Part shown: piece after piece, positions 10,639 to 47,322 of the stretch | Layout of the letters: every line of letters begins with the position of its first letter | How positions within the stretch are numbered: the stretch's first letter is position 1 | NCBI GenBank assembly: GCA_963662715.1 | Contig: OY759724.1 | Location: 2,843,339-2,907,338 of the forward strand | Length of the DNA stretch: 64,000 nt | Origin: Candidatus Omnitrophota bacterium | GTDB taxonomy: Bacteria > Omnitrophota > Gorgyraeia > Zapsychrales > JANLHA01 | Direction: 5' to 3' | Position numbers and translations under genes: made by a program | The notes under the pieces: generated by a model | Seen by the model: the letters and a program-made list of their open reading frames with translations, nothing else | The model's database searches: none | Told to the model about the DNA's origin: nothing

Positions 10639-11028
10639 GTGATGGGTAAGAAAACTGGTTTTACGCTAGTTGAGGTGATGATTGTTGTCGCTATCATCGC
10701 CCTTTTAGCCGTTATTGCAATTCCTAACCTTTACCGGGCAAGAGTGCAGGCCAATCAGTCAACAGCTCAGGCCCACTTGAAATCTATCGCGAATTCCCTG
10801 GAAAACTACGCAGCGATTCATAGTATTTATCCTTCGGATACAACACAACTTTTAGGCGCCAGCCCCCCGTACCTCAGCATTGACTTTTTTTCCGGATTTC
10901 ACGCCGGATACAGTTTTACCAGTCAGCTGGGAGATTATTATTATACAATTACGGCCACCCCTGCGACTTCAGGCGCTGGAACGAGCACGTATACCTTAAC
11001 GACAGGTGGCGTTATTTCTGCCATCTAA
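10639..11028 (+). CDS. Prepilin-type (type IV pilin / T2SS pseudopilin) protein
   Basis: 129 aa. N-terminus GFTLVEVMIVVAIIALLAVIAIPNL is the canonical prepilin peptidase cleavage/methylation motif plus a hydrophobic helix. Confidence 0.75.
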   Translation: MMGKKTGFTLVEVMIVVAIIALLAVIAIPNLYRARVQANQSTAQAHLKSIANSLENYAAIHSIYPSDTTQLLGASPPYLSIDFFSGFHAGYSFTSQLGDYYYTITATPATSGAGTSTYTLTTGGVISAI

Positions 11029-11111
11029 TTCTCAAGCCTCCTAAAAAAACTGAATTTTTGACAAGAATTTTTAATTGGGATTTAAAATAAGTCAATAATA
11101 GAAGTATTTCC

Positions 11112-11140
11112 TTGACAATCTTTCGGCAAACCTTAATATA
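11112..11140 (+). promoter_or_regulatory. Candidate sigma70-type promoter (TTGACA-N16-TAATAT) upstream of the large island
   Basis: TTGACA at 11112-11117 and TAATAT at 11134-11139 with a 16 nt spacer. A second, weaker TTGACA lies at 11058-11063. It sits in the 396 bp AT-rich gap before the first island gene, which starts at 11425. Confidence 0.3.
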
Positions 11141-11424
11141 GTATAAGTGGTTTAAACAGGATGGGATAAGAGAAATGAGGGGCGGGGTCAGCCTAAAAGC
11201 CTGTTTTTTTTTGCCCTGGGGTTATCTGTCAGCATAAAACAGAGAGAGGGAAATTGTGCTATAATGATAAGTATTAAAACTTATTAAGAATAAATCTTTA
11301 TTACAGTAATATTTATTTTAAACTATAATGACTGCATCTGAAACACCGAATAGATGATAAGGTTAAAGAGGAGCCCCGGGAAAGACTTGGGTATAGCTTA
11401 GAACATGGGAATTAATATAGGAGC

Positions 11425-12492
11425 ATGATCGAACATTCAAAACCAACACTTGGATTAGAAGAGAAGAAAGCTGTTTTAGACACCCTTGACACAAATTATA
11501 TCGCGGAAGGGCCACAGGTCCGCTCTTTTGAGGATGAGGTTGCCGCGTATATAGGCTCCGTTGGGGGTGTAGCCACCTCCACGGGCACATTAGGTCTCCA
11601 CCTGGCGCTGCTCTGCTTTGACCTCACCCGGAAAGACGAAGTTCTTATCCCGAGTTATACTTGCCGGTCGGTTTTAAATGCCGTTTTATATTCTGGAGCC
11701 CGGCCCGTATTATGCGATGTCAATAAAGACGATTATAACTTATCTCTGACAGAGGTTAAGAATAAGATAACATCAAAAACAAAGGTGATAATCGTTCCGC
11801 ATATGTTTGGCTGTCCGGCCCCCGTGGACCGCTTCAAAGAGCTGGGGATACCCATTATTGAAGACTGCGCCCACGCTATCGGGGCGGAATATCAGGGCCG
11901 GAAAGTAGGATGTTGGGGGGACCTGGCGCTGTTTTCATTCGAGGGTACGAAGTATATCGTTACGGGCGAAGGGGGTATGGTTCAGGCCAATTCTCAGGTC
12001 ATGCTCGATAAACTTCGAAAACTAAAAGAGAGCGATTCTTTTGATTTTTTAACGAAATATACTTACCGGATGACTGATTTGCAGGCGGCCGTGGGCCGGG
12101 CTCAACTCAGGAAATTAGACGGTTTTATAGAGAAAAGAAGGTCTATCGCTGAAATCTACAATAAAGCTTTTCGGACCTTGCCCGTGACCGGCCCAGAGGA
12201 TAACTTGAAAGAGGGGCATATTTATCAGCGTTATATGATTCAAATCGGCGGGGGTATTCAGGCTTTCATGGAAAAATGCTATAAGAAAGGGATCAAGGTC
12301 AAACAGCCTGTTAAACCCTATGCGCTTCATTCGTATCTGAGGGTGTCTGCCCGGAGGTATCCTCATACGGAATATATTATGCATTCAGCCGTTTCTGTCC
12401 CCATTTATCCGTCGTTAACAGCCGAACAAACGGTTTATATAACTGAAACTTTAAGGGAACTATTAACAGAACATCATGCGAAATCCCCATAA
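11425..12492 (+). CDS. DegT/DnrJ/EryC1/StrS (ArnB-like) PLP-dependent sugar aminotransferase
   Basis: 355 aa. DegT family pattern with the putative PLP-lysine in FSFEGTKYIVTGEGGMV. N-terminal LGLEEKKAVLDTLDTNYIAEGPQVRSFEDE. Confidence 0.85.
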   Translation: MIEHSKPTLGLEEKKAVLDTLDTNYIAEGPQVRSFEDEVAAYIGSVGGVATSTGTLGLHLALLCFDLTRKDEVLIPSYTCRSVLNAVLYSGARPVLCDVNKDDYNLSLTEVKNKITSKTKVIIVPHMFGCPAPVDRFKELGIPIIEDCAHAIGAEYQGRKVGCWGDLALFSFEGTKYIVTGEGGMVQANSQVMLDKLRKLKESDSFDFLTKYTYRMTDLQAAVGRAQLRKLDGFIEKRRSIAEIYNKAFRTLPVTGPEDNLKEGHIYQRYMIQIGGGIQAFMEKCYKKGIKVKQPVKPYALHSYLRVSARRYPHTEYIMHSAVSVPIYPSLTAEQTVYITETLRELLTEHHAKSP

Positions 12493-13450
12493 CACAACTG
12501 TTTCTCACTATGGTTTTTTGACAGAAAAGGCCAAACGCTTTCCTCCGATGATTGTCGTTGAGATCACCAACGTTTGCAATCTGGAGTGCATCCATTGTCC
12601 GCATGCCTTTATATCCAAGGAGCCCGGGTACCAGCCACGCTATATGGGCTGGGCTCTTTACAAAAAAATCGTCGATGAAGTTTCGCAATATCCCGGAACG
12701 ATTTTCCGGCTGCTGTGTGACGGGGAGCCCTTATGCCATCCGCGCTTTATTGATATGCTCCGTTATGCGAAGGAGAAAAATGTCCGGCCCGTAAATTTCA
12801 TTACCAACGGTCTCCTGCTGGATTCTTCCAAGGCAGAGGCTGTTCTGCAATCCGGAGTTGAGGCTGTGGAATTCAGTCTTGATGCGCTTCACAAAGAGAC
12901 CTACGAGAAGATCCGGGTGGGATCGGATTTTGAAAAGGTTATGCATAATGTCCACCAGTTTATTGAAATGCGCGACCGGCTTAAGGCGCAGACCAAAATT
13001 TTTGTGAGCATTATCGATCAGCCGGAAGCCGAACAGGAACTGGAGGCCTTCCTCGCTTATTGGACGCCGAAGGTCGACCGTGTTCTGACGAGGATGTATA
13101 CCTCTATCCGGGGTTTGGTCGATACGAGAAAGATTAAGATCGACCCCGACCTGACCCGCTGGCCATGTCCGGATCTCTGGCGGCGTTTTTTTATCAACGT
13201 GGACGGCCTGGCGGAATTTTGTGTGGAAGACTGGTATGACCAGTCTGTTATCGGTGACGTGACCCAGGCCGGCATTCATGCTATTTGGCGGTCTCCCGCC
13301 TATGAGCGGATCAGGGGCCTGCATTTGCAGGGGAAATTTGAAGAGGTGTCTTATTGCCACCACTGTTTAGACTGGCGGGCCCGTGACTGGCATTATGATT
13401 ATTTCCTGGCCCTTAAAGAAGTTTTGAATCATGAAACAAAGACGGAGTAA
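12476..13450 (+). CDS. Radical SAM enzyme with C-terminal SPASM/twitch auxiliary-cluster domain
   Basis: 324 aa. CNLECIHC (CX3CX2C) radical SAM motif near the N-terminus. C-terminal Cys cluster (CPDLW...FCVEDW...YCHHC). Confidence 0.75.
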   Translation: MRNPHNTTVSHYGFLTEKAKRFPPMIVVEITNVCNLECIHCPHAFISKEPGYQPRYMGWALYKKIVDEVSQYPGTIFRLLCDGEPLCHPRFIDMLRYAKEKNVRPVNFITNGLLLDSSKAEAVLQSGVEAVEFSLDALHKETYEKIRVGSDFEKVMHNVHQFIEMRDRLKAQTKIFVSIIDQPEAEQELEAFLAYWTPKVDRVLTRMYTSIRGLVDTRKIKIDPDLTRWPCPDLWRRFFINVDGLAEFCVEDWYDQSVIGDVTQAGIHAIWRSPAYERIRGLHLQGKFEEVSYCHHCLDWRARDWHYDYFLALKEVLNHETKTE

Positions 13451-13452
13451 AC

Positions 13453-14841
13453 ATGGGAGCTGCGATATCCCCCAAGACAATAAGAACAACCCGGAGTGTC
13501 TGCCCCAAATGCCTTCAGACGATTGATGCCTTTATTGTGGAAAAGGATAACAAGGTTTTCATGCAGAAGACCTGTCAGCTGCACGGGTTTTTTGAGATAT
13601 TGCTCTCAGAGACAGCCCCGTATTATTCTGAACTGGAACAGTATTATTTTGACCTGGCGGACGAGCGCAACGAGGTGCCGGAATATGAGATCTGGCCGAC
13701 CTATAAATGCAACATTGATTGCTCTATTTGCTGTTTCGGGAAACAAAATCATGAGATGGAGGACCAGGACGCTTCTCTCTCCCAAATCGAACAGTTCATC
13801 AAAAACAGTTCCAAACGCTTTTTTATCCTTTCCGGGGGAGATCCGACCTGCCGGGATGACCTCGATCAGATCATAAAATTATTCCGGAAATACGGTAAAA
13901 CGGTCACGATCAACACCAACGGCCTGAAATGCGCGAGCATAAACTATCTTAAAAAACTTAAAGAGGCTGGCCTGGACCGCCTTAACCTGCAGTTTGACGG
14001 TTTTGACCGCAAGGCCTATATTGCGCTGCGGCGTCAGGACTATCTGGATGTGAAGTTGAAGGTTATTGAAAATTTGAAAACCCTCAATATCCAGACGACG
14101 TTCAACGCAACCATAGCCAAGAATCTTAATGAGAACGCCGTTAAAGATTTAATAGATTTCGCCGCAAAGCATCCGTTTATCAACGGGGTAAACTTTTTTA
14201 CGATTTGCTACCTGGGCGGCGCCAGGGACTGGGGCCCGGATAACTATATTATGCCTGATGAAATTGTCGACTTGCTGCAGCAACAGACGGATCATAAGGT
14301 CAGCAAAGAAAATGTCTTTATATTTCAGAAACTTCATCTGGCCATAAAATCCTTTTTATCCCAGAAATGGTGTTTTTACAATCAGGTTTATCTTTTTGTC
14401 CGTGACCGGGGTTCTTATCAGCCGATCGACCGGTATTTGAACCTGGCCAAAGCCGGCCCCTGGCTGGATAAGTACCGGGACGCTTTTATCAGGAAAAAGT
14501 TCTTGTCCCGTTTTTATCTTGGCATGGCGGTTGTGTGTCTGTTCCTGAAGAAAGAATCTTTGGTCATTTTTAAGGAAATCCTTTTAAGGGGGCTGTCTTA
14601 TTTCTTGAAAACCCAGCATTATCTGAAAGGCAGCCGTTTCTTTTCCGTCAGTTTTTCGACCGGGTGCGATCCGTATAAATTTGATCATGATATTGTCAAA
14701 CATTGTCAAAATGAGATTATCGCGGCTCAGGATGCGACAGGGATCCTGACGGAACTGGGGAGCGACGGAATTTACTGCATGAATTTAGAGAGAAGACATT
14801 TAAACAAAACCTTAAACCAGGAAAGGACGGCGTCCCCTTAA
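13453..14841 (+). CDS. Radical SAM protein with N-terminal Cys-rich ribbon; COG1964 / Tes-GDGT-MAS-like family (paralog 1 of 3)
   Basis: 462 aa. N-terminal CPKC...TCQLHG, then CNIDCSIC (CX3CX2C). Shares LQFDGFD and NxTIAKN motifs and a C-terminal CDPYKFD motif with its two paralogs. Confidence 0.65.
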   Translation: MGAAISPKTIRTTRSVCPKCLQTIDAFIVEKDNKVFMQKTCQLHGFFEILLSETAPYYSELEQYYFDLADERNEVPEYEIWPTYKCNIDCSICCFGKQNHEMEDQDASLSQIEQFIKNSSKRFFILSGGDPTCRDDLDQIIKLFRKYGKTVTINTNGLKCASINYLKKLKEAGLDRLNLQFDGFDRKAYIALRRQDYLDVKLKVIENLKTLNIQTTFNATIAKNLNENAVKDLIDFAAKHPFINGVNFFTICYLGGARDWGPDNYIMPDEIVDLLQQQTDHKVSKENVFIFQKLHLAIKSFLSQKWCFYNQVYLFVRDRGSYQPIDRYLNLAKAGPWLDKYRDAFIRKKFLSRFYLGMAVVCLFLKKESLVIFKEILLRGLSYFLKTQHYLKGSRFFSVSFSTGCDPYKFDHDIVKHCQNEIIAAQDATGILTELGSDGIYCMNLERRHLNKTLNQERTASP

Positions 14842-14842
14842 T

Positions 14843-16108
14843 ATGCTCAAGGCCTACCCCCGACATTCCGTGGATATTACAAAGCATGATTATAAACGGA
14901 TGCTTGCTTTTTTGTTCGCCCCCCGGTCCGTCAAAGCCGGATATCTGAAGCGGTTCGAGCAATCATTCGCCGGATATATCGGGACGCGGTTCGCTTTGTC
15001 CATGCCTTCCGCCAGGCTCGGTCTTTATGTCGTGTTGAAATATTTTAATTTCCCCGAGGGGACGGAAGTTATTATCACGCCTTTCACCCATCAGAGTATC
15101 TTCACGGTTCTCAAAACATTCCGGCTGAAGCCTGTTTTTGTTGACATAGACCCCAAGACCCATAACACCAATCCTTCTTTGGTCAAACAGTGTATCTCAG
15201 AAAAAACGCGCCTTATGGTTTTGACCCACATGTGGGGGCAGGCCTGTGATATGGACGCTTTTATGACGCTGAAAGAGGAATACGGCCTGAAAATCATTGA
15301 AGACTGCGCCATGGCGGCCGGGGCCGTTTATAAAGGCAAAAAAGTAGGCAGTTACGGAGATGCCAGCATATTTAGTTTCGGGAAGGCGAAAGCCATTTGT
15401 GCTTTCGGAGGAGGAATGTTGTGCCTGAATGACGAGAAGATGCATGAGTTTGTCGCTTCGGTCATTAAGGATTTTCAGCCGCCCCGGCCGTTTTCTCTGG
15501 TCTTTTCCGTGATCAATTCCGTGGTCGCCAATGTCCTCACCCGTCCGCGATGTTTTTTCCTGTCGCTTTATCCGGTTATGCGGCTTTTTAATCTCAGAGA
15601 CCCCTACAATCCGGTTGAGCATAAAAAGGATTCCGAAGTCATTCTGGAGCAGATGCCGGAAGAATGGAAAGTCCGGTTATCGTCTTTTCAGGCGGCCATA
15701 GGCCTTGAACAGCTTAAGACTTTGGAAGAACGCAATGACCGCAGAACCCAAAATGCCCGGATTTTGAACTATGCCTTGAAGGACGTCCCGGATATTGGTC
15801 TGCCGGAGACGTCAGAACGCGGGCAGCATATTTATCTCTACTATGCGGTTCACATAAAGAAGAAAACCGATCTGGACAATCTCCGGAAGAAACTGTTGGC
15901 GCGGGCCGTGGATACCCAGCTGAATGAATTGACGAATCCCGAGCAGTTAAGCATTTTTGGCGCGGACAGCGGGTCTTTTCCGGTCTTTGACAAGATCTCT
16001 CCCAACATTCTTGTTATTCCCAACGGAATAATGCTGAATGAGCAGGATATCCATGCGGTGGCACAGGCGGTCAGGGAATGCCTTGGGCCCGGCGGGGGTG
16101 AGATGTAA
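14843..16108 (+). CDS. DegT/DnrJ/EryC1 (ArnB-like) PLP-dependent aminotransferase
   Basis: 421 aa. DegT family pattern with the putative PLP-lysine in FSFGKAKAICAFGGGML. Confidence 0.8.
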   Translation: MLKAYPRHSVDITKHDYKRMLAFLFAPRSVKAGYLKRFEQSFAGYIGTRFALSMPSARLGLYVVLKYFNFPEGTEVIITPFTHQSIFTVLKTFRLKPVFVDIDPKTHNTNPSLVKQCISEKTRLMVLTHMWGQACDMDAFMTLKEEYGLKIIEDCAMAAGAVYKGKKVGSYGDASIFSFGKAKAICAFGGGMLCLNDEKMHEFVASVIKDFQPPRPFSLVFSVINSVVANVLTRPRCFFLSLYPVMRLFNLRDPYNPVEHKKDSEVILEQMPEEWKVRLSSFQAAIGLEQLKTLEERNDRRTQNARILNYALKDVPDIGLPETSERGQHIYLYYAVHIKKKTDLDNLRKKLLARAVDTQLNELTNPEQLSIFGADSGSFPVFDKISPNILVIPNGIMLNEQDIHAVAQAVRECLGPGGGEM

Positions 16109-29458: not shown

Positions 29459-30499
29459 GTGAGAGAAACGAGAACTCTTTATAAAACAATTATGATGTTT
29501 CTTGTCCCGACCTGCCTTACGGTCGTCGTCCTGTATCTGTTATTCAGAAAAGTGGATCTGCCGATGATGTGGGCTTCTATGCGGCAGATCCATCCTGTGT
29601 TTCTTTTAACAGCGTTTTCAATTTCTGTTTTCTGTAACATCGCGGTTTATGCGCTGATTCGGTGTAAGATATGGCGGATCATGGGCGTTCCGGTCTCTTA
29701 CCGGGAATCGGTTTTTATCAGGCTGGGAAGCCTGCCGTTTCAGGCGATCCCGACATTTAAAGATACCGGCTTAGCCAAGGCCATATACCTGAAAAAATTT
29801 TTTGCCATGCCGATGACGGAAGGAGTTCTATCAAATATTATTGCCAATATTTTCAGCGTGACGGCAATAATATCTTTGGCGGTCGCCGGCGCTCTGGCGA
29901 ACGGAATCAATGTGATGCATATGTCTCAGATCAACCAGCCGCTTCTGCTCAGAGTGGTCCCGGTTATCGGGGTGATCAGCTTCGTCCTTTATGCGTTTTA
30001 TTTTCATCAGCCCTTTGGGAAAAAAATGCTTTTTCATGTCTGCTTCAAAAGAAACCCGGACCTGTACCGTATTTTTGAAAAAAATATGCATCTCTGGAAA
30101 AAACTTCCCGGGGTCCGGCTCTTCAGCTTTTTTGCCCTGGCCCTTGCTTTTAAGTTAGCCGAGGTGTCTATTTTTTTTGTCTTAGCGCAGGCGTATTCTT
30201 TGAATATCCCCTTTTCGGCTATTTTACTTTTTGTCCCTTTGGCCATGATTATCAGCGAGTCGCCGGCCAATATCTCCGGACTTGGGGTCAGGGAAGGGGC
30301 CCTTGTGCTGTTTTTCTGGAATTTTGCGGCCAAGGAAACCCTTGTGGCCATGGCTGTGCTGGTTTTTGTTTTTAACCGGCTCTGTCCGTTAATACTGGGA
30401 CTTGTGTTTTGTTATCCGTTTTTTTCCAGGTTAGGGGTATCATGGAAAAGCGTCAGGGCCATGGCGGGCCGGGAAGGAATAAATTCATTTTCTACATAA
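29459..30499 (+). CDS. Flippase-like / lysylphosphatidylglycerol-synthase-TM-region family membrane protein
   Basis: 346 aa, ~8 TM segments. The pattern resembles the TIGR00374/PF03706 family that is usually paired with GT2 polyprenol-phosphate glycosyltransferases. Confidence 0.55.
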   Translation: MRETRTLYKTIMMFLVPTCLTVVVLYLLFRKVDLPMMWASMRQIHPVFLLTAFSISVFCNIAVYALIRCKIWRIMGVPVSYRESVFIRLGSLPFQAIPTFKDTGLAKAIYLKKFFAMPMTEGVLSNIIANIFSVTAIISLAVAGALANGINVMHMSQINQPLLLRVVPVIGVISFVLYAFYFHQPFGKKMLFHVCFKRNPDLYRIFEKNMHLWKKLPGVRLFSFFALALAFKLAEVSIFFVLAQAYSLNIPFSAILLFVPLAMIISESPANISGLGVREGALVLFFWNFAAKETLVAMAVLVFVFNRLCPLILGLVFCYPFFSRLGVSWKSVRAMAGREGINSFST

Positions 30500-30517: not shown

Positions 30518-31246
30518 ATGCTAAATCAAACGATTTCTCTGGTTGTTCCTGTTTATAATGAGGCGGAAATCATCGCGGAAACAGTTGCCGTTTTTGACGA
30601 CGCCTTAAGGAGCATCTGCCGGGATTACGAAATCATTATCGTGGACGACGGAAGCGTTGATGAAACCCCGGGGATTCTTCAGCGCCTCTGTTCCCAGCAC
30701 GTTCGTTTAAAGATTATGCATAATTCTGCCAATATCGGAAGCGGGGCCAGCCTTTGGCGGGGCTTTCAGCAGGCGGGCAAAGACCTTGTCGTCAGCAATT
30801 TCGCGGACAGGCCTTTTGATGTTACGGAGCTGGGAAGAATTATCCCGTCCGTTGATTTCAGCGCCACAGACTTCGTCGTGGTTGTCCGGCAGGACAGAAG
30901 CGCAAACACACCCTATCGTAAGATCACGTCTTTGACGAATTATTGGCTTATCCGATGCCTTTTCCGAATTGAGATTTCTGATTTCCAATTTGTGCAGATT
31001 TACAGGCGGGACATCCTGAAGGGCGTTCGCATTGACTCCCAGGAAACATTTGTTCCCCCCGAGCTTATGATCAGGCTGATTCAAAAGGGATATCGGTATC
31101 AGGAGGTTGTTTCTTCTTTTTATAGACGGCCCGGGGGCCAGCCCAAGTGCGGTCATCCCGGGAAAATCATGAAAAGTATATTTGATATTTTAAAATTTTG
31201 GATATCCTGGGAAATCTTGGGGAAAAAGGACGGAGGGGAGCGATGA
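30518..31246 (+). CDS. GT2 glycosyltransferase, polyprenol-phosphate sugar transferase type (ArnC/DPM1-like)
   Basis: 242 aa. N-terminus SLVVPVYNEAEIIAETVAVF...YEIIIVDDGSVDETPGIL is the GT-A DXD region of ArnC/DPM1-like enzymes. Confidence 0.8.
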   Translation: MLNQTISLVVPVYNEAEIIAETVAVFDDALRSICRDYEIIIVDDGSVDETPGILQRLCSQHVRLKIMHNSANIGSGASLWRGFQQAGKDLVVSNFADRPFDVTELGRIIPSVDFSATDFVVVVRQDRSANTPYRKITSLTNYWLIRCLFRIEISDFQFVQIYRRDILKGVRIDSQETFVPPELMIRLIQKGYRYQEVVSSFYRRPGGQPKCGHPGKIMKSIFDILKFWISWEILGKKDGGER

Positions 31247-31941
31247 GAATCAGCATTATGCAACCCGGGTATTTACCCTGGCTGGGTTTCTTTGACCTGA
31301 TGGCCCGCTGTGAACTGTTTGTGATACTCGATGACGTCCGGTTTGCCCCAAGGGACTGGCGTAGCCGTAACCGGATCCGCACCAAAGACGGATGGGTCTG
31401 GTTGACGGTCCCGGTTTTATCCAAAGGCCGGGCCGGGCAAAACATTCTAGACGCTCAAATCAATAATGATATCAACTGGCGTCATACTCATTTGAACTGT
31501 TTGAGAATTCATTATGCGAAGGCCCCGTATTTTAAGGATTACATCCGATTGTTCGAGGATGTTTACACCCGACAGTGGAACAGCCTGCTGGAGCTGGATA
31601 TGGCCCTGATTTCCTCCCTGTCCCGGCAAATGAAGATTGAGACCCCTGTCATGCACTCGTCATCTTTATCTCTTACGGATGTCTCCGGCAATGAACGTAT
31701 CATTAAAATCTGTCAAGAACTGGACGCCCAAGAGCTTTACGACAGTCAGGGCGCTAAGCCGTTTATCCAAATGCCTCTATTTGAGGAAGCGAATATCCGG
31801 GTGGTTTTTCAGGATTACCGGCATCCGGAATATCAACAAGTTTATGAACCGTTTTTACCGTATATGTCTGTCGTTGATTTATTGTTTAACGAAGGGCCGC
31901 GGAGCAAGGATGTTCTGCTGCGTGATGGCCCTTCCGGTTAA
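31243..31941 (+). CDS. WbqC-family protein (polysaccharide-cluster associated)
   Basis: MRISIMQPGYLPWLGFFDLMARCELFVILDDV matches the WbqC family N-terminus. Start set at the ATG that overlaps the upstream stop (ATGA), not the track's upstream ATG at 31198. Confidence 0.6.
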   Translation: MRISIMQPGYLPWLGFFDLMARCELFVILDDVRFAPRDWRSRNRIRTKDGWVWLTVPVLSKGRAGQNILDAQINNDINWRHTHLNCLRIHYAKAPYFKDYIRLFEDVYTRQWNSLLELDMALISSLSRQMKIETPVMHSSSLSLTDVSGNERIIKICQELDAQELYDSQGAKPFIQMPLFEEANIRVVFQDYRHPEYQQVYEPFLPYMSVVDLLFNEGPRSKDVLLRDGPSG

Positions 31942-31971: not shown

Positions 31972-33807
31972 ATGAAGAAATATCCCTGGATGCCGTTTTT
32001 CATATTATTGGCTGTTGCGTTGGGCTTTGCGGCCCCTGTCTTGAAAAACATCCATTACTGGGGCCATATGGACTGGGACCAGTTTACATTCTGGCATGCC
32101 GTCCCGCGGGAAACAATTTTAAAATACCGTCAGTTCCCGCTTTGGAATCCTTATGTCAACGGCGGAAATGTCCTGCTGGCCCATCCTCATTCGGCTTTTT
32201 TATCCCCTTTTTTTATTTGTGTTCTGATCTGGGGGCCGGTTATCGGCCTTAAGCTGGAGATAGTGCTCCATCTGTTTGCCGGGCTGACGGGGATGTACAC
32301 GCTGTCGAGATATATGAAGATGAACGAACGGGCCGCTTATCTCTCTTCTTTTGTCTATATGTTAAGTTCGATTTTCCCGTTGCACTTGGGGGAAGGACAA
32401 GCCGAGTGGCTTTCCCTGGCTTTTGTCCCCTGGTTTTTTTTGTTTTTTTTGAAAACAATAGATGCGGACATGGCCCGTCGGACGGTTACGGCTGAATCAT
32501 CCGGAAGGACAGACCTTGCTTCCGGACCGGTGAGGCATGGGAATCCTTTGGCGGGAATAAAGAATTTTACGGCTGCCGTATTTTTTTTGGGCATGATTTT
32601 GGTGAGCGGGGTATATGTCTTTAACATCCTCTTCGTATTTTTGTGCTTGTATTCTCTCCTGAAATCGGTCCGAGAGAAGAGCCCGGCGCCCCTTAAAATT
32701 TTCAGCGTCATTCTCCTGGGGGCATGTTTGTTGTGCGCTGTTAAACTGCTGCCCATGCTGGAATTTTTAAACCAGTATCCCCGGCTGATCGACCAAAAGA
32801 GCGGGCTGGGCTGGGACACATTAGGAACCATGCTTTTCAGCCGGCAACAGGCCCTTTTGGACATGCGTCTCTGGGAAACGGTTCTTCTTGAGACAGGGGA
32901 ATATCAGTACGGCTGGCATGAATACGGAGCCTATGTCGGATTTCTGCCTTTCTTTTTGTTCCTTTACGGGGTTTTCAAAAGATATAAGAAGAACTGGCCT
33001 TTAATCCTCACCGCCGTTATCTGCCTACTGATTGTTTTGGGGGCGCGCGCTCCCGTCAATATCTGGGGCTTCCTTCGTCATTTCCCGGTCTATAAATCCC
33101 TTACGGTACCCTCGAGATTTATTTTTTGTTTCATTTTTCCGTTTGCCTTGTTGGCGGGCTGGGGGCTGTTTTGTTTGGAATCGTATTTGCCGCAGAGGGC
33201 TAAATCATTATCCGTCATGATTGTTCTGCTGGTCCTCACGGATTTATGGCAGGTCAATGCTCCGATCTTTAAAAATGTTTTCAGAATACCTCCGGTTAAG
33301 GTGTCCAGCGCCGGAGAGTTCCGGCAGCGGTACGACAAGATTAATTTTTATGAGGATAAAGATATCAACCGCAGTTCTCAATACCCGGTTTTCCTGAGTC
33401 ATAGCGGGATTCTGGATGCTTACGAATGCGTGCAGGTCAAACGGGGCGATGTCCGTGCGCTGACCGATCCCGGATACCGGGGGGAGATTTATTTTAAAGA
33501 CAATAAGGGGGACATTTTAAGCCAACAGTTTTCTCCCAATAAAATTACCGTTGATATTGAAACAGAAGAGCAGGATGTCCTGGTCATCAACCAGAATTAT
33601 TATCGGGGATGGCGTCTCCGCTATAACGGACGTAAACAGCAGCCTGTCAGTTACAACGGGTTGATCGCGGCTTCTGTCCCGCCGGGCCGTCACCGCATAA
33701 TTTTTTATTATTTGCCTTGGAGTTTCATCCTGGGGCTGGGGGTGAGTTTGGCTTTTATCGGCGGAATCCTTTTTTGTTTTATCAAAAATTCCCAATATCG
33801 GGGATAG
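31972..33807 (+). CDS. Large polytopic membrane protein, possibly a GT-C-fold / YfhO-like glycosyltransferase
   Basis: 611 aa. More than 10 hydrophobic segments plus a C-terminal periplasmic-like domain and a final TM segment. No confident family assignment. Confidence 0.4.
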   Translation: MKKYPWMPFFILLAVALGFAAPVLKNIHYWGHMDWDQFTFWHAVPRETILKYRQFPLWNPYVNGGNVLLAHPHSAFLSPFFICVLIWGPVIGLKLEIVLHLFAGLTGMYTLSRYMKMNERAAYLSSFVYMLSSIFPLHLGEGQAEWLSLAFVPWFFLFFLKTIDADMARRTVTAESSGRTDLASGPVRHGNPLAGIKNFTAAVFFLGMILVSGVYVFNILFVFLCLYSLLKSVREKSPAPLKIFSVILLGACLLCAVKLLPMLEFLNQYPRLIDQKSGLGWDTLGTMLFSRQQALLDMRLWETVLLETGEYQYGWHEYGAYVGFLPFFLFLYGVFKRYKKNWPLILTAVICLLIVLGARAPVNIWGFLRHFPVYKSLTVPSRFIFCFIFPFALLAGWGLFCLESYLPQRAKSLSVMIVLLVLTDLWQVNAPIFKNVFRIPPVKVSSAGEFRQRYDKINFYEDKDINRSSQYPVFLSHSGILDAYECVQVKRGDVRALTDPGYRGEIYFKDNKGDILSQQFSPNKITVDIETEEQDVLVINQNYYRGWRLRYNGRKQQPVSYNGLIAASVPPGRHRIIFYYLPWSFILGLGVSLAFIGGILFCFIKNSQYRG

Positions 33808-38385: not shown

Positions 38386-39894
38386 ATGAAACTCTCCTTA
38401 ATTTTTAATCCGTTTTCCTATAAGGTTCATGAGGAAAATATAAGAGTCGTCCAGAAATATTTCGGACTGTTCCCGCCTTTGAGCCTCGCTTGGGTTGCTT
38501 CCATTGCCGAACAGGCGGGACACCAGGTTCAATTGGTTGATGCCCGCACTTTGAGACTTTCCATGGAAGCCACGCTCGAAAAAGTCCGGGATTTTCAGCC
38601 GGACATCATGGGATTCATGATGACGACATATATGTTCCAGGACACGTTGCTTTGGATCAAGTTCCTTAAACAGCATCTAAATATCCCGGTTCTTATCGGC
38701 GGATACAATCTGAGAGTTTATCCCCGGGAGTCTCTTTCTCATCCGGAAATCGATTTTGGTGTTGTTGAACATGCGTATTACACCGTTCCCCGGCTTTTGG
38801 AAGAGCTTGAAAGCGGCCGGCGTGATTTCGATAAAGTGCCCGGCCTGGTTTATAAACGCAACGGCCAGATCGTGGTCACGCCGCATCCGCAAAAAATAGA
38901 ATTTGATAAGTTCCCCAACCCGGCCCGGCATCTTTTACCCAATGAGCTTTATGCGGAATTCCCTACGGAGCGGAGGAACTTTACCGTCATGGTGACATCT
39001 CTCGGCTGTCCGTATGGTTGTACATTTTGTGAGGCAGGCCAGACGCCGTACAATCCCCGTTCTCCGGAGACAGTGGTCGCTGAGATGGAAGAATGCTACC
39101 GGAACTACGGGATAAGGGAAATTGATATCTTTGATTATGAGTTTACGGGTATCCGCAACCGTGTCATGCGGATTTGTCAATTGATAAAAAAGAAAGAGCT
39201 GGATATTATCTGGGCCTGCCGTTCCCGGATTGATACCGTTGACCGGGAGCTTCTGAAAGAAATGAAAGAAGCGGGATGCCGGCGAATATATTTTGGGGTG
39301 GAATCAGGCCGGCAGGAGCTCCTGGATAGAGTTCATAAAGGATATTCCATTGCCCAGATCAGGGACATTATCGCGGTGTGCTCTGATTTGGGTATCCGCA
39401 CTCTGGGCTTCTTTCTTATAGGAGCTCCGGGGGATACCCGGGAAACCGTGAAGGACACGGTGGCCTTTGCAAAAACACTTGATTTGGACTATGTCCAGTT
39501 TTCCAAATGTCTGGCCAAACCGTTAACGCCTTTGTGGAAGGAGATGGTCGCCCAGGAAAAGAAGGATTATTGGCGGGACTGGATTCTGGGCCGGGAGGTG
39601 GATCGGGAGTTGCCCCGTCCGTGGACAGAATTAACAAATCAGGAAATAGACCGGTTGGCCCGCTGGGCGTACGTTTCATACTATGCCAGACCCTTTTTCC
39701 TCTGGAAGCATTTATGCAAAATAGCTTCGTTTTCTGAATTGAAAAGAAAAGTTTTTGCCTTGTTCGATATGGTTTTTAAACAGGAATCCTATTCTCGTCC
39801 GGATGCCCATTTCGTGGCTTTTAACGAGAATCCCGGAATGAAACTGACGAAATATCAGACGTCAAAGGGCTGCCCTGACGACGGGGGCTTATGA
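38386..39894 (+). CDS. Cobalamin-binding-domain radical SAM enzyme (class B-like)
   Basis: 502 aa. B12-binding N-domain, then radical SAM CPYGCTFC. Confidence 0.8.
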   Translation: MKLSLIFNPFSYKVHEENIRVVQKYFGLFPPLSLAWVASIAEQAGHQVQLVDARTLRLSMEATLEKVRDFQPDIMGFMMTTYMFQDTLLWIKFLKQHLNIPVLIGGYNLRVYPRESLSHPEIDFGVVEHAYYTVPRLLEELESGRRDFDKVPGLVYKRNGQIVVTPHPQKIEFDKFPNPARHLLPNELYAEFPTERRNFTVMVTSLGCPYGCTFCEAGQTPYNPRSPETVVAEMEECYRNYGIREIDIFDYEFTGIRNRVMRICQLIKKKELDIIWACRSRIDTVDRELLKEMKEAGCRRIYFGVESGRQELLDRVHKGYSIAQIRDIIAVCSDLGIRTLGFFLIGAPGDTRETVKDTVAFAKTLDLDYVQFSKCLAKPLTPLWKEMVAQEKKDYWRDWILGREVDRELPRPWTELTNQEIDRLARWAYVSYYARPFFLWKHLCKIASFSELKRKVFALFDMVFKQESYSRPDAHFVAFNENPGMKLTKYQTSKGCPDDGGL

Positions 39895-41168
39895 TTTTTA
39901 GACCGATTCCAAGACAGAAATCTTCTAATTCCCTGAGCGACTTATGCCGTGTTTTTGAATTGATGCGGGAGAAAGGTTTTTTTCAGGGCGAAGGCATCAG
40001 GGCGTTTGAAACAGAGTTCGCGCAGGCTTACGGCGTCAGACATGCCTTGGCGACGGGATCCTGCCGTTCGGCCTTCTCGCTGGCGCTTGATGCTTTAGGG
40101 ATTCAAAGCGGGGACGAGGTGATACTGCCGGCCTTTAATATGCCGGCATTTCCAAAAATATTAAGATACAAGGGGATTAAACCGGTCTTTGTCGATATTC
40201 ATGAAAGGACGCTTAATATTGACGAGACATTGATAGAGGAAAAGATTACCGCCCGGACCAGGGCCATTGTTGCGGTGCATTTGTTCGGCAACACGTGTCC
40301 CATGGACCGGATCATGACTTTGGCCCGAAAGCACCGGCTGGTTGTTATTGAGGACTGTGCCAATGCTTTTAACACGCCGTATCAAGAACGTTTGGCCGGG
40401 ACTTACGGTGACGTGGCGTGTTTTAGCCTGGGTTCGACAAAAGATATCCCCACATGGGGTGGCGGGGTCATTATTACGAATGATTCCGCCCTTTTCAGCA
40501 AATGCGTCGATCTGTATGAACGAAATTTTGTGTTCCCTTCTTGGACCGAAGTGACAAAAAATCTTATTAAAGGAGCTTTGATGCAGTTGTTGTCATTGAA
40601 ATTTTCTTATCTTCTGTTAATTTTTCCCATGAACCTTTTCTGTTCACTCGTTCATTTTGACCCTTTGGACTATGTGATTGAAGAGAAGGACCGGGAGATG
40701 AGTTGTCTTCCGCAAAAGAAATACACCAACTTTCAAGCGCTTATTGGAATAAACAAATTCCAAAAGAGCCGGTTTTTTCAGGAAAAGCGCGGCGCTAACG
40801 CCCGGATTTTAAACGACCGTTTGTCTGAATGCCCGGCCATTGTCACACCCGGGGTTCTTGAAGGCGGTAGCCACGCCTACTGGAATTATCCTCTGCTGGT
40901 CCCTTGCCGGAGGCCGTTTGTCCGGGCATTGTTACGGCACGGCATCGGGACAAAGACGATTGACACTTATGACTGTAATGGATTGGATATCTTCCGGGAA
41001 TACCGGCAGATGTGCCCCAAAACAGAAGAGGTGGCCCAAAAGATTTTGGTTCTTCCTGTTTATCATCACTTGAATAAAAATGATGTGGAATTTATGGCCG
41101 CAATTCTTAAGAAGACATATTCTAAGCTGGCGCTCCAGGACCGGGGGGAGGGCTGCTCGGGGACATGA
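39891..41168 (+). CDS. DegT/DnrJ/EryC1 (ArnB-like) PLP-dependent aminotransferase
   Basis: 425 aa. Putative PLP-lysine in FSLGSTKDIPTWGGGVI. ATGA overlap with the upstream gene. Confidence 0.8.
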   Translation: MIFRPIPRQKSSNSLSDLCRVFELMREKGFFQGEGIRAFETEFAQAYGVRHALATGSCRSAFSLALDALGIQSGDEVILPAFNMPAFPKILRYKGIKPVFVDIHERTLNIDETLIEEKITARTRAIVAVHLFGNTCPMDRIMTLARKHRLVVIEDCANAFNTPYQERLAGTYGDVACFSLGSTKDIPTWGGGVIITNDSALFSKCVDLYERNFVFPSWTEVTKNLIKGALMQLLSLKFSYLLLIFPMNLFCSLVHFDPLDYVIEEKDREMSCLPQKKYTNFQALIGINKFQKSRFFQEKRGANARILNDRLSECPAIVTPGVLEGGSHAYWNYPLLVPCRRPFVRALLRHGIGTKTIDTYDCNGLDIFREYRQMCPKTEEVAQKILVLPVYHHLNKNDVEFMAAILKKTYSKLALQDRGEGCSGT

Positions 41169-44156: not shown

Positions 44157-45077
44157 ATGAACATCGCTTTTATGAAAAAAACACAAATCCTCCTGGCCCC
44201 GGCTCTGACCGCGGTTATTTTCGTGATCCTGTTCCGCTATATTTCTCTGACGGAGGTCGTCCGGATAACGAAAAATTGCCATATCAATATCCTTTTGTGG
44301 ACTTTAGTGGTCTCGGCAGGGTCAAATATTTATATCAATGCCTTAAGATTTCAGAATATTTTAAGGCAGCTGGGAATCCCTCTTTCGCTTTTCGAAACAA
44401 TACTGATCAAAGGGGGCGGTTCGCTGTTTAAAGTTTTTATGCCGGCCCGCAGCGGTGAATTCGTCATGATGGCTTACCTGAAACGGGTGAAAGACCTGTC
44501 TTATATCCAGTCCTTTTTTCTGATCATATCCGAATACATTCTCAACCTTTCGGCGCTGATCCTTTTTTTTCTTACAGGCTTCTTGTGGTCAATCAACCAG
44601 CCTGCTGTGAACCGGCATACCCTGGCCATGATTATTATGTTCCCCACGGAAGAAAATCCTTCTTCCCGGGGATTCCGGGCCGTTTTTCATAAATGGCTTC
44701 CGGATATTAAAGACAACGTCAGCCTTTTCCGCCGATTATGTTTCCGGAAAACCATTATTTTTTATACGCTGCTGTATATGGGAGCTGAAGTGCTGACATT
44801 TTATCTGTTGGCACACGCCCTGAACATTTTTATTCCTTTCGGTATTGTTCTCATGCTGATTCCGGCAGCCTTTTTGCTGAGCAGCCTTCCGCTCACTTTG
44901 GGAGGGCTGGGCCTGAGAGAGTGCGCCGTATTGTTTTTATTTTCATCCTATGCCCCGGCAGAAGAGCTGTTGTCTTTGGGCGTTCTTTATTCTTTTGTTG
45001 AAAACCTTTTCCCTTTGCTGATTAACGGATCTCTGTCCGGTCTTTTTCTTTCCAGGTTATTGAAAGGGGAGCAATGA
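44157..45077 (+). CDS. Flippase-like / LPG-synthase-TM-region family membrane protein
   Basis: 306 aa, multiple TM segments. Same family pattern as 29459..30499. Confidence 0.5.
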   Translation: MNIAFMKKTQILLAPALTAVIFVILFRYISLTEVVRITKNCHINILLWTLVVSAGSNIYINALRFQNILRQLGIPLSLFETILIKGGGSLFKVFMPARSGEFVMMAYLKRVKDLSYIQSFFLIISEYILNLSALILFFLTGFLWSINQPAVNRHTLAMIIMFPTEENPSSRGFRAVFHKWLPDIKDNVSLFRRLCFRKTIIFYTLLYMGAEVLTFYLLAHALNIFIPFGIVLMLIPAAFLLSSLPLTLGGLGLRECAVLFLFSSYAPAEELLSLGVLYSFVENLFPLLINGSLSGLFLSRLLKGEQ

Positions 45078-46066
45078 TAAGTTATAAAAAAATTTTTCCA
45101 ATTGTCGGACATATTTTGGCCGCTAAGATGTGTCATATCCCGTGCCCCCTGGCGGTCCGCTGGGCGTTAACTTATCGGTGCAATCAGCAGTGTTTGTATT
45201 GCGGTATCCCGCACCGGAAGGATTACTATGAATTGGATGCGGCCGGTATTTGCCGTATGCTGGATGATTTTGTGCGCCTGGGCACACAATGGATTTCTTT
45301 CTCCGGAGGGGAGCCTTTGCTCCGGGACGACCTTCCTGCGATTGTGAAGCATGCGAAAAAGCGGGGTTTTTTTGTGACACTCAGTACGAACGGAAGACTG
45401 CTGCCGGAAAAAATCCGGGATTTGCGATGTGTCGACCGCATCAAAATAAGCCTGGACGGCCCTCAAGATGTCCATGACCGCATCAAAGGCCAAGGGTCTT
45501 TTCAAAAGGTCATGGAGGCTTTGGCCTTATGTCAGGAACAGGCTATCCCGGTTGCTGTGGATTGTGTCATTTCGAAATTCAACGCCGATGTCATTGAGGA
45601 ATGTCTTGGGATCGCTGAGGCCCGTCATATCCCGATATCCTTTCAGCCGGCGACGATAAGGCGGTTGCCCCGGGATGAGGAGGAGGATTATCTGGTGCCG
45701 GCGGATAAATACAGAACGATTATAGAGCTTTTAATTGCCTTGAAAAAGAAGGGAGCCCGCATAGAAAACTCCGTGGCCGGGTTGCGCCATCTTGGGCATT
45801 GGCCTGTTCCTCGGTCTATCCCGTGTTCCATGGGATTATTAAGTTATAATGTGGAACCCAACGGGATCATCGGGGCTTGCATCGATAAATCCTATATTTA
45901 TGTGGGGCGGGATGAATCGCAAGGGCAGGAGTCCCTTCGGACAATCTTAAAAAACGCGAAGCCGCCGTCTTCTTGCCGGGAATGCTGGTGCGGAGCTATG
46001 GTGGAATTTAACCTGATAAATTCTTTCAACCTGGATGCTATTTTTAATCGCATGAAATATTCATGA
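45074..46066 (+). CDS. Radical SAM enzyme with SPASM/twitch C-terminal domain
   Basis: 330 aa. CNQQCLYC near the N-terminus. C-terminal Cys-rich tail (CSMG...CIDKSY...CRECWC). ATGA overlap with the upstream gene. Confidence 0.75.
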   Translation: MISYKKIFPIVGHILAAKMCHIPCPLAVRWALTYRCNQQCLYCGIPHRKDYYELDAAGICRMLDDFVRLGTQWISFSGGEPLLRDDLPAIVKHAKKRGFFVTLSTNGRLLPEKIRDLRCVDRIKISLDGPQDVHDRIKGQGSFQKVMEALALCQEQAIPVAVDCVISKFNADVIEECLGIAEARHIPISFQPATIRRLPRDEEEDYLVPADKYRTIIELLIALKKKGARIENSVAGLRHLGHWPVPRSIPCSMGLLSYNVEPNGIIGACIDKSYIYVGRDESQGQESLRTILKNAKPPSSCRECWCGAMVEFNLINSFNLDAIFNRMKYS

Positions 46067-46107: not shown

Positions 46108-47322
46108 ATGTTAAAAAAGTTTCCTAAAAGAAATATTTTTATATCCGAAAAAGAAATAAAAGCGGTATTGTCTTTTCTGTTTCGTCCGCGAGTCAGGGCT
46201 GAAGATTTTGTCAGAAAGTTTGAAGATAATTTCAGTCGGCACATCGGGGTAAAAGAGGCTATCGCTGTCGGCTCGGGCCGGTTCGCTTTGTCTTTAATCC
46301 TGAGATCCCTGGGAGTGCAAAGAGGCGATGCTGTTTTACTCAGCGCCTATAACTTTACCGGTGTGCCCGAATCGTTACGGCAGGAGGGGGTGGAGCCTCA
46401 TTTTGTTGACGCCGATCCGTCAACTTATCAAATGAACATCGATCTGATCCCGCAAAAAATCACTGAAAAAACTAAAGTTCTCCTGGCCACGCATCTTTTC
46501 GGGCAGCTATCCGACACGGACCGGCTGGCGGATCTGGCCCGGGAAAATCACCTCTACCTCATAGAAGATGCCGCGCAGGCTTTGGGAAGCTTTTATAAAA
46601 ACAGGCCGGCAGGAACACGGGCCGATATCGGGCTGTTCAGTTTTACGGGCAGTAAATTGCTTAATACGTCCTGGGGTGGGATGATCGTTACAAACAACGC
46701 AGACTTAGCCGGAAAGATCCGTCAGGAGTTGTCCCGTTATCCTGCTCTCGGCACAGCCCAGGCCGTTTTCTTCAGGGTGAAAACTTATGCCTATGCTTTG
46801 GCGACCCAGCGTGCTTTTTACAGTTATCTGGTCTATCCTCTGACGGTGTTGTTTTATTTGTGCGGTATTGACCTTTTTGCGGCTTATAAAATGTTTGACC
46901 GCCGGGTGTCTCCCTACAAGAGGAACGGGCTGAATAATTTGCAGGGGTATCTGGGCCTCGATCAGATGGACCGGCTTGAACAGTTTATAAAAAAGCGGAA
47001 AGAGTACGCCGGCAAACTTCTGGCCCAATTGGCCCCTGCGATATCTTTGCAGAAAGGCCCCCCGGACGCCGACCCGTGTTATTTTATGATCCCCCTGAAA
47101 GCAAAACACAAGGGGGAGGCCTATAAAAAACTGCTCCTTAAAGGGATTGACAGCAATATTCAGTATGCGGCCGATTGTTCGGGATTGACAGGGGTTCATA
47201 ATCCGTGCGCAGCGGATTTATCCCAACATATTTTAACGATGAATTTGCCTTTGCGCATGAGTGATCAGGATATAAATTATATGGCGCAATCCATAAATGA
47301 TTTAAAAGATATGTTAGAATGA
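46108..47322 (+). CDS. DegT/DnrJ/EryC1 (ArnB-like) PLP-dependent aminotransferase
   Basis: 404 aa. Putative PLP-lysine in FSFTGSKLLNTSWGGMI. Confidence 0.8.
   Translation: MLKKFPKRNIFISEKEIKAVLSFLFRPRVRAEDFVRKFEDNFSRHIGVKEAIAVGSGRFALSLILRSLGVQRGDAVLLSAYNFTGVPESLRQEGVEPHFVDADPSTYQMNIDLIPQKITEKTKVLLATHLFGQLSDTDRLADLARENHLYLIEDAAQALGSFYKNRPAGTRADIGLFSFTGSKLLNTSWGGMIVTNNADLAGKIRQELSRYPALGTAQAVFFRVKTYAYALATQRAFYSYLVYPLTVLFYLCGIDLFAAYKMFDRRVSPYKRNGLNNLQGYLGLDQMDRLEQFIKKRKEYAGKLLAQLAPAISLQKGPPDADPCYFMIPLKAKHKGEAYKKLLLKGIDSNIQYAADCSGLTGVHNPCAADLSQHILTMNLPLRMSDQDINYMAQSINDLKDMLE

Follow-up and report, generated by a model that had tools for sequence, protein, structure and literature searches.

What supplies the keto-sugars for an island of bacterial genes that encodes four sugar aminotransferases and is crowded with radical enzymes? 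The question arises in a stretch of 64,000 nucleotides from a Candidatus Omnitrophota bacterium (GenBank assembly GCA_963662715.1, contig OY759724.1, positions 2,843,339 to 2,907,338 of the forward strand), here called the window, in which a gene for a pyridoxal phosphate (PLP)-dependent aminotransferase of the DegT/DnrJ/EryC1/StrS family (DegT) twice lies next to a gene for a radical S-adenosylmethionine (SAM) enzyme that carries a twitch domain. We name these two radical SAM enzymes rSAM_A and rSAM_B and the four aminotransferases DegT1 to DegT4. The linkage between rSAM_A and DegT genes is far beyond chance and is conserved across phyla. The reading that we favour, at a probability of roughly 0.4, is that each pair forms a functional amino-sugar tailoring module in Arn-like, lipid-carrier-dependent surface glycosylation. 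A radical SAM enzyme paired with a DegT-family PLP enzyme in sugar tailoring is an already known kind of system; new here are an uncharacterised, widespread family in primary cell-surface glycosylation and, in Omnitrophota, the lack of a partner dependent on nicotinamide adenine dinucleotide (NAD).

Both pairs are present where a preliminary description of the locus had placed them. DegT1 (11425..12492, + strand, 355 amino acids (aa), PF01041 E = 8e-83) is followed by rSAM_A (12476..13450, +, 324 aa, Radical_SAM E = 2e-17, SPASM E = 9e-11), whose start precedes the DegT1 stop, giving an overlap of 17 nt. rSAM_B (45074..46066, +, 330 aa, Radical_SAM E = 5e-27) stands directly upstream of DegT4 (46108..47322, +, PF01041 E = 4e-59), across a gap of 41 nt, and the same pair occurs in another Omnitrophota contig (L160). 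The count of four DegT paralogs also holds, the other two starting at 14843 and 39891.

Because about half of the island genes encode radical SAM enzymes, adjacency within the island is by itself unsurprising, and it is a survey across phyla that bears on linkage. Taking one genome per species, we found relatives of rSAM_A in at least 269 species genomes or loci and retrieved 79 loci, from Omnitrophota, Nitrospirota, Myxococcota, Ignavibacteria, Gemmatimonadota, Desulfobacterota, several proteobacterial classes and others. In 55 of the 79 loci the rSAM_A homolog has a DegT gene on its own strand within 3 kb, and in 20 loci one stands immediately upstream of it (gap −28 to +59 nt). DegT genes are 5–8 times denser within 3 kb of rSAM_A (0.12–0.18 per kb) than at 6–9 kb (0.022–0.024 per kb). 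The pairing could in principle be a by-product of radical SAM gene density, since 17–18 of the ~36 island genes are radical SAM genes and DegT2 and DegT3 are flanked by radical SAM genes of other types. We consider this highly improbable, given that rSAM_A is linked to DegT in other phyla as well, in loci (types II and III below) that contain no other radical SAM genes, and that the overlap between DegT1 and rSAM_A is kept in the Omnitrophota locus L164, at 8 nt.

For rSAM_B, we examined homologs in four other Omnitrophota contigs, and in three of them the homolog is directly adjacent to a DegT gene. L160 has the order LPG_synthase_TM, rSAM_B, DegT, PMT, identical to that of the window; two further contigs have DegT, rSAM_B, DegT and DegT, rSAM_B, split transketolase, respectively. 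In the fourth, L163, a radical SAM–DegT fusion lies two genes downstream of the rSAM_B homolog. This fusion is a single open reading frame (ORF) of 728 aa (L163:8584-10770) that joins a twitch-like radical SAM domain of a third type to a DegT2-like aminotransferase. A search of 5.8 billion proteins returned no second full-length radical SAM–DegT fusion, and the L163 gene may be either a real, rare fusion or an assembly artefact caused by a long-read indel. Transketolase-like genes split into an N-terminal and a C-terminal half are repeatedly found next to rSAM_B, DegT and glycosyltransferase family 2 (GT2) genes in three Omnitrophota contigs (L161, L162 and L163), which suggests two-carbon transfer onto a sugar to give a branched or chain-extended product.

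Twitch domains are truncated SPASM domains with one auxiliary cluster and without the full seven-cysteine motif CX9-15GX4C...CX2CX5CX3C...C (PMC6231123). In an alignment of 34 rSAM_A family members (38–68% identity), C34, C38 and C41 of the CX3CX2C motif are invariant and PF04055 matches above its cut-off, placing the family in the radical SAM superfamily. Beyond this motif exactly four cysteines are invariant, C231, C249, C294 and C297 (spacing x17, x44, x2). They form CX12GX4C and then CXXC, with no further conserved cysteine, a pattern indicative of a twitch domain with one auxiliary cluster; in particular, the 34-member alignment contains no eighth conserved cysteine. rSAM_B likewise has an invariant CX3CX2C (C36, C40 and C43) and a PF04055 match above cut-off. 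Its SPASM region is not called by Pfam, yet a C-terminal CX12GX4C...CXXCXC is present, four cysteines (C251, C269, C301 and C304) are conserved at 90% or more, and the region aligns with the twitch domain of SkfB, pointing to the same single-cluster type. The C-terminal auxiliary-cluster domain attributed to both proteins in the preliminary description is therefore borne out by the four conserved cysteines in each, which should be able to ligate one auxiliary [4Fe-4S] cluster fully. Full cysteine ligation of an auxiliary cluster goes with electron removal in two-electron oxidations, as in BtrN, SuiB and PqqE (PMC9012708; PMC6231123).

The closest known relative of rSAM_A is BtrN. A profile of the rSAM_A family, compared with all PDB sequences, places BtrN first (E = 5e-17), followed by MoaA (1e-10), tetraether synthase (1.6e-10), DesII (1.5e-7) and anSME (2.4e-6). 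The stronger of the two stretches aligned with BtrN is the C-terminal domain (family positions 227–309 against BtrN 167–250), where the four cluster cysteines are in register (WPC/SC, FCVEDW/PCFEDF and CxxC/CKNC). AlphaFold models of rSAM_A (predicted local distance difference test score 91.7) and rSAM_B superpose on solved radical SAM cores. A Foldseek search with rSAM_A puts SuiB on top and does not separate SuiB, BtrN, DesII, anSME and BlsE, with DesII within the top four fold matches and BlsE also among the top ones; superposition is tightest on BtrN (root-mean-square deviation 1.9 Å, 21% identity). The similarity falls short of ortholog level, and no NCBIfam model reaches its cut-off (best, 'spiro-SPASM', 108 bits against a cut-off of 250). 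The earlier label 'BtrN-like' thus stands for rSAM_A as to nearest relative and architecture, and fails at the level of orthology and for rSAM_B. Sequence clustering within the SPASM/twitch subfamily does not predict function (PMC6231123). Many Arg, Lys and Trp residues are invariant in the rSAM_A family and would fit an anionic sugar substrate, linked to a nucleotide or to a lipid phosphate.

rSAM_B, of BlsE-like fold, belongs to a different family, as profiles of the two proteins can be aligned over the radical SAM core only. The strongest hits of its profile are two sactipeptide synthases, SkfB (2.6e-29, over the full length with the twitch domain) and CteB (2.9e-27); viperins, anSME and PqqE come next, and BtrN reaches only 1e-6. 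These matches, and the position of SuiB as top Foldseek match of rSAM_A, are what favours a reading of the two enzymes as maturases of proteins or of peptides that are synthesized on ribosomes and modified post-translationally, with DegT adjacency incidental. We regard this as extremely unlikely. CX3CX2C begins at residue 34 in rSAM_A and 36 in rSAM_B, and SkfB and CteB align only from their residues 105 and 100, so that neither protein has the N-terminal peptide-recognition element of the sactisynthases (for its role, see PMC6231123). Moreover, the upstream regions contain no conserved small ORF (those present in L164 lack a counterpart in the window), the island holds no protease or exporter genes, and the linkage to DegT, GT2 and WbqC genes is conserved.

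The four aminotransferases have the features of fold-type I PLP enzymes of the DegT/DnrJ/EryC1/StrS family, with PF01041 E values from 4e-59 to 8e-83. Loss of the PLP lysine, which the preliminary description had considered, is found in none: the Schiff-base lysine (K176 in DegT1 numbering) and the aspartate of EDxAxA (D147) are invariant in all four aligned paralogs. By sequence, DegT1 and DegT4 are intact PLP-dependent sugar aminotransferases. DegT1 falls in a clade restricted to Omnitrophota, nearly all members of which lie directly upstream of an rSAM_A homolog, and its top NCBIfam matches, all under cut-off, are PseC, LegC and ArnB. Against the PDB, generic sugar aminotransferases and ArnB score 6e-52 to 2.5e-47, whereas BtrS (2c7t) reaches only 8e-24. 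DegT1 thus looks most like generic nucleotide-sugar C4 aminotransferases (PseC, ArnB and perosamine synthase), far above BtrS, contrary to the BtrS-like role first proposed for it.

DegT2 (14843..16108, +), which belongs to a conserved Omnitrophota clade, matches PF01041 in two stretches (E = 6e-70) and has a segment inserted after the PLP lysine, and DegT3 (39891..41168, +, PF01041 E = 3e-74) lies between B12-radical SAM genes. In DegT2, DegT3 and DegT4, a hydrophobic segment of 45–60 aa is inserted just past the PLP-lysine region, an insertion absent from DegT1 and from the DegT proteins of other phyla. Its hydropathy peaks (Kyte–Doolittle, 19-residue window) are 1.28 in DegT2, 1.71 in DegT3 (at residues 233–256) and 1.83 in DegT4. 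The insertion may be a membrane-associating hairpin, hinting at lipid-linked substrates.

The rSAM_A loci fall into three types of context. Type I comprises the window and 15 other Omnitrophota loci, with the order DegT, rSAM_A, HMPTM-radical SAM, DegT, HMPTM-radical SAM, B12-radical SAM and onward. The 15 loci hold 25 DegT genes, and no gene for a short-chain dehydrogenase/reductase (SDR) or a GFO/IDH/MocA oxidoreductase lies within 6 kb. Hidden Markov models of the SDR, GFO, hexapeptide-transferase and FemX-like neighbour families found no match in the six-frame translation of the window. With no NAD-dependent sugar dehydratase or oxidoreductase in these 16 islands, their DegT enzymes have no obvious local source of ketone, which fits radical oxidation followed by transamination.

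Type II, found in ten loci of Proteobacteria, Smithella and Nitrospirae, has DegT, rSAM_A, WbqC and GT2 genes, sometimes rSAM_B, and in addition methyltransferases, a flippase-like protein and a GT-C glycosyltransferase (PMT_2 or DUF6044). PgfS and ArnC align with the whole length of the GT2 enzymes, and a partner DegT (in the Smithella locus L074) has ArnB as its top match, in each case below cut-off. An SDR is present in three of the ten loci; the one in L074 is a true PseB, which probably serves a true PseC encoded further downstream. These cassettes have the gene logic of Arn without ArnA, and so support the favoured reading. More generally, a polyprenyl-phosphate sugar synthase of family GT2 together with a flippase-like protein and a GT-C enzyme is the setting of extracytoplasmic glycosylation of the Arn/Gtr/CsbB–YfhO type.

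Type III, with 32 loci from Nitrospira, Myxococcota, Ignavibacteria, Gemmatimonadota and others, has a core made up of a 4,6-dehydratase-like SDR, DegT, a FemX-like protein of 369 aa and rSAM_A. GT2 is often present as well, as it frequently is beside rSAM_A in phyla other than Omnitrophota. To this core is often added a module of a GFO enzyme resembling UDP-GlcNAc 3-dehydrogenase and a hexapeptide acetyltransferase. The FemX/FemAB-like protein of ~369 aa has no Pfam match and is recognised by similarity to FemX in the PDB (E = 4.9e-10) and to the NCBIfam model pepcterm_femAB; it directly flanks rSAM_A in 32 of the 79 loci (among L012-L072; for example, L054:5982-7151 and L069:4212-5321). In 11 loci, the gene immediately downstream of rSAM_A is WbqC. 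FemX-like and WbqC genes exclude each other, each directly flanking rSAM_A, and their products may carry out equivalent N-acylation steps. In Ignavibacteria (L055-L066), the order GT1-TPR, GT2-TPR, FemX-like, SDR, rSAM_A, an 806-aa GT2 and DegT is directly followed by a gene for a 730-aa flagellin, and the cassette resembles an island for flagellin glycosylation with a radical SAM enzyme among its members.

These contexts also bear on the aminocyclitol-like product that the preliminary description had envisaged. On that account, inositol or an inosose would be aminated, re-oxidised by a BtrN-like enzyme and aminated again, as in the 2-deoxystreptamine and streptamine pathways. BtrN is indeed the nearest solved relative of rSAM_A, the island has four DegT genes, and in some loci rSAM_A has a GFO/IDH/MocA neighbour whose second-best match is inositol 2-dehydrogenase. 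However, the top match of that neighbour is UDP-GlcNAc 3-dehydrogenase, the window contains no gene for 2-deoxy-scyllo-inosose synthase, inositol-phosphate synthase or other cyclitol or aminocyclitol enzymes, DegT1 is far closer to nucleotide-sugar aminotransferases than to BtrS, and the surroundings are glycosylation cassettes of the O-antigen-like, flagellin or Arn-like kind. We therefore consider an aminocyclitol very unlikely, and a nucleotide sugar or lipid-linked sugar the more likely substrate. The other product that the preliminary description named, a poly-amino sugar made by iterative oxidation and transamination, is speculative.

For type I and type II loci, we infer, with about the same confidence as for the module as a whole, that the DegT enzymes receive the carbonyl they require from the radical enzymes. 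In such a route the radical enzyme would abstract hydrogen from a hydroxyl-bearing carbon of the sugar and the auxiliary cluster would remove the second electron, as proposed for BtrN, yielding a keto-sugar whose ketone DegT would then convert to an amine. rSAM_A would perform a BtrN-like carbinol oxidation. rSAM_B could instead act on a uronic or diol sugar, which it would decarboxylate or dehydrate by radical chemistry; BlsE, whose fold it resembles, decarboxylates a glucuronide at C5 (PMC3715490). Radical enzymes would in these anaerobes replace the NAD-dependent ketone generators (ArnA, WbpB and 4,6-dehydratases), and the amino sugar, once complete, would be attached to polyprenyl phosphate and flipped, with its transfer taking place outside the cytoplasm.

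Several observations weigh against this reading. The rSAM_A family has no characterised member. Its DegT partners come from different clades in different phyla, the DegT1 clade being confined to Omnitrophota. A GFO/IDH/MocA oxidoreductase resembling UDP-GlcNAc 3-dehydrogenase adjoins rSAM_A in ~10 loci. In type III, 33 DegT genes face 29 SDR and 11 GFO genes, so that NAD enzymes match the DegT count, rSAM_A is not needed there as a source of ketone and it probably acts later. Finally, the sequence covered here is the 64-kb window, and the rest of the genome could encode a 4,6-dehydratase or another oxidoreductase. The oxidise-then-transaminate order of the preliminary description is hence plausible for the island, with its lack of NAD oxidoreductases; the type III loci contradict it as a rule of general validity.

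The strongest alternative reverses the order: DegT would aminate a keto-sugar made by an ordinary NAD-dependent dehydratase, and rSAM_A would then modify the amino sugar, or an N-acyl or aminoacyl group added by the FemX-like or WbqC protein. Oxidation at another position, epimerisation, DesII-like deamination and anSME-like oxidation of a side chain are possible reactions. Such an order is matched by the order of the genes, DegT then rSAM_A, in 20 loci including the window; by the type III core of SDR, DegT, FemX-like protein and rSAM_A, with NAD enzymes enough for every DegT; by the mutual exclusion of FemX-like and WbqC genes directly beside rSAM_A; and by the precedent of DesI and DesII, which aminate and then perform radical chemistry, DesII being a top-four fold match. 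It is set back by the absence of the NAD-dependent dehydratase that it requires from the Omnitrophota islands (the window and 15 loci), and by the E value of DesII against the rSAM_A profile, 1.5e-7 compared with 5e-17 for BtrN. Two of its reactions meet specific obstacles. Deamination of the DesII kind would strip the amine that the FemX-like enzyme would acylate in loci with a single DegT. Known radical SAM epimerases (NeoN and EpeE) need a cysteine as hydrogen donor, and rSAM_A has no eighth conserved cysteine to fill this role. Action of rSAM_A after amination is, in our view, only slightly less likely than the favoured reading.

A bolder version of radical oxidation before transamination would extend it to the whole island, which would then assemble heavily modified amino sugars at the membrane by a largely radical route, independent of NAD. 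rSAM_A and rSAM_B would take the place of ArnA-, WbpB- or 4,6-dehydratase-type enzymes as makers of keto-sugars, the DegT paralogs with insertions would aminate intermediates linked to polyprenyl phosphate, ~11 B12-radical SAM enzymes and three Tes-like enzymes would C-methylate or cross-link the product, and GT-C enzymes would then export it to the cell surface. We think so complete a route unlikely. If it were true, primary cell-envelope sugar metabolism would have in rSAM_A its first radical SAM dehydrogenase.

The island itself, with its 17–18 radical SAM genes, is a more remarkable object than the pairs that drew attention to it. It runs from 11425 to ~58800, with nearly all genes on the + strand and a uniform GC content, and its gene order is kept in other Omnitrophota (L001, L007, L010, L046, L160 and L164). 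Ten genes clearly encode B12-binding radical SAM proteins (starting at 17422, 20336, 21841, 23353, 26240, 38386, 41165, 42745, 50230 and 53681); an eleventh, at 35294-36793 (−), is a weak radical SAM gene similar in size to this set, in which a B12 domain was not detected. Three encode Zn-ribbon radical SAM proteins of the HMPTM/Tes/TrsS-like kind (13453, 16112 and 24866) and one is MiaB-like (18975); rSAM_A and rSAM_B are the two twitch members. The first Zn-ribbon gene (13453..14841, +) matches Zn_ribbon_HMPTM and Radical_SAM, with NCBIfam TrsS and Tes below cut-off, and the series DegT, rSAM_A, HMPTM, DegT, HMPTM is preserved in L001, L007, L010, L046 and L164.

Genes for glycosylation are interspersed among the radical SAM genes: two flippase-like LPG_synthase_TM genes, WbqC, a YfhO-like gene and two PMT_2 (ArnT-like) GT-C genes. 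An asparagine synthase gene, a GT9 gene and two genes for small GT2 enzymes are also present, the top NCBIfam matches of the latter being the polyprenyl-phosphate sugar synthases ArnC, PgfS and PpgS. The first LPG_synthase_TM gene (29459..30499, +, PF03706 E = 9e-21), whose family also adjoins DegT and rSAM_A in the Sulfuricella locus L076, is followed by a GT2 gene of this type (30518..31246, +, PF00535, top NCBIfam match ArnC, below cut-off) and, overlapping it by 49 nt, by the O-antigen-associated WbqC gene (31198..31941, +, PF08889 E = 5e-74). A profile search of solved structures with WbqC gave no relative (best E = 0.16), and we found no functional literature on the family. Next comes a YfhO-like GT-C membrane glycosyltransferase (31972..33807, +), matched by PF09586 in its C-terminal part only (E = 4e-10). 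The second LPG_synthase_TM gene (44157..45077, +, PF03706 E = 6e-32) overlaps rSAM_B by 4 nt, in the order seen in L160, and beyond DegT4 lies a PMT_2/ArnT-like GT-C gene (47444..48730, +, PF13231 E = 4e-28) of the family that closes the cassettes of L076 and L160. Four proteins of ~500–540 aa have no Pfam match (27799-29409, 33819-35312 (−), 48720-50273 and 55010-56626); at least the third is a polytopic membrane protein and a candidate for an unrecognised GT-C enzyme or polymerase.

Upstream of the island lie housekeeping genes (ilvBN-like, gshAB, dus and miaB). Directly before it, a type IV pilin-like protein of 129 aa (10639-11028), with an N_methyl motif and a C terminus rich in Thr, Ser and Gly, could be a glycosylation target; the L164 island, which likewise begins at the DegT1 ortholog, has different genes upstream. 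The 396-nt gap between the pilin-like gene and DegT1 (11029..11424, +) is a probable promoter region, with two sigma-70-like sites that each match 10 of 12 consensus positions (11112-11139 and 11300-11329), by consensus match only. Two flanking genes look defence-related: one upstream, 8538-9419, encodes a CAP12/Pycsar-type TIR domain behind a long acidic low-complexity N terminus, and one downstream, 61610-63589, encodes an AAA_15/AAA_21 (AbiEii-like) ATPase; an AAA_15/AAA_21 ATPase is encoded near the L164 island too.

Across cell-surface glycan, flagellin and Arn-like cassettes, the rSAM_A family consistently accompanies sugar aminotransferases. Should it prove to be an anaerobic generator of keto-sugars, it would represent a new entry point to amino-sugar biosynthesis, explain DegT genes that stand without a partner dehydratase in the genomes of anaerobes and provide an annotation rule for hundreds of proteins now labelled 'radical SAM/SPASM'. 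Should it instead modify N-aminoacyl amino sugars, the chemistry would be new to glycans. Compact proteobacterial cassettes, such as those of Sulfuricella (L076) and Smithella (L074), are tractable test systems either way.

Compared with known systems, the rSAM_A pair shares with BtrN and BtrS of the butirosin 2-deoxystreptamine pathway a twitch radical SAM enzyme encoded next door to a DegT-family partner. It differs in that identity between rSAM_A and BtrN is only 17–21%, that rSAM_A exceeds the BtrN chains in the PDB (~270 residues) by ~55 aa, that neither the window nor the related loci examined contain genes of the 2-deoxystreptamine pathway, that DegT1 is not BtrS-like and that rSAM_B is not BtrN-like. 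The setting here is cell-surface glycosylation rather than antibiotic synthesis, and the substrate is probably anionic, not a free aminocyclitol. BlsE, from the blasticidin S pathway, acts on cytosylglucuronic acid, an intermediate of a nucleoside antibiotic; it is 15–17% identical to rSAM_B and ranks below SkfB, CteB and the viperins in sequence-profile comparison. In desosamine biosynthesis, the DegT-family aminotransferase DesI is followed by the radical SAM deaminase DesII. rSAM_A lacks DesII-type similarity in sequence and architecture, as its profile match covers the core only and DesII is ~490 aa long, and deamination is hard to square with the FemX-like N-acyltransferase beside rSAM_A in single-DegT loci.

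The NAD-dependent pairs WbpB/WbpE and GnnA/GnnB, which make 3-amino sugars, follow the logic proposed here, from hydroxyl to ketone to amination by DegT, with the difference that their oxidant is a GFO/IDH/MocA dehydrogenase; some loci have both a GFO gene and rSAM_A, so rSAM_A is not in every case a plain substitute for such dehydrogenases. As to Arn, the window has no ArnA-like or SDR gene, and its ArnB-, ArnC- and ArnT-like genes score under the equivalog cut-offs. In place of the ArnA-type NAD-dependent oxidative decarboxylase/formyltransferase stand a twitch radical SAM enzyme and WbqC. The pathway is thus not a member of Arn and is similar to it in logic, sharing with Arn, GtrABC, CsbB/YfhO and PgfS/PgfM a DegT aminotransferase, a GT2 polyprenyl-phosphate sugar synthase, a flippase-like protein and a GT-C enzyme of the PMT_2 or YfhO kind.

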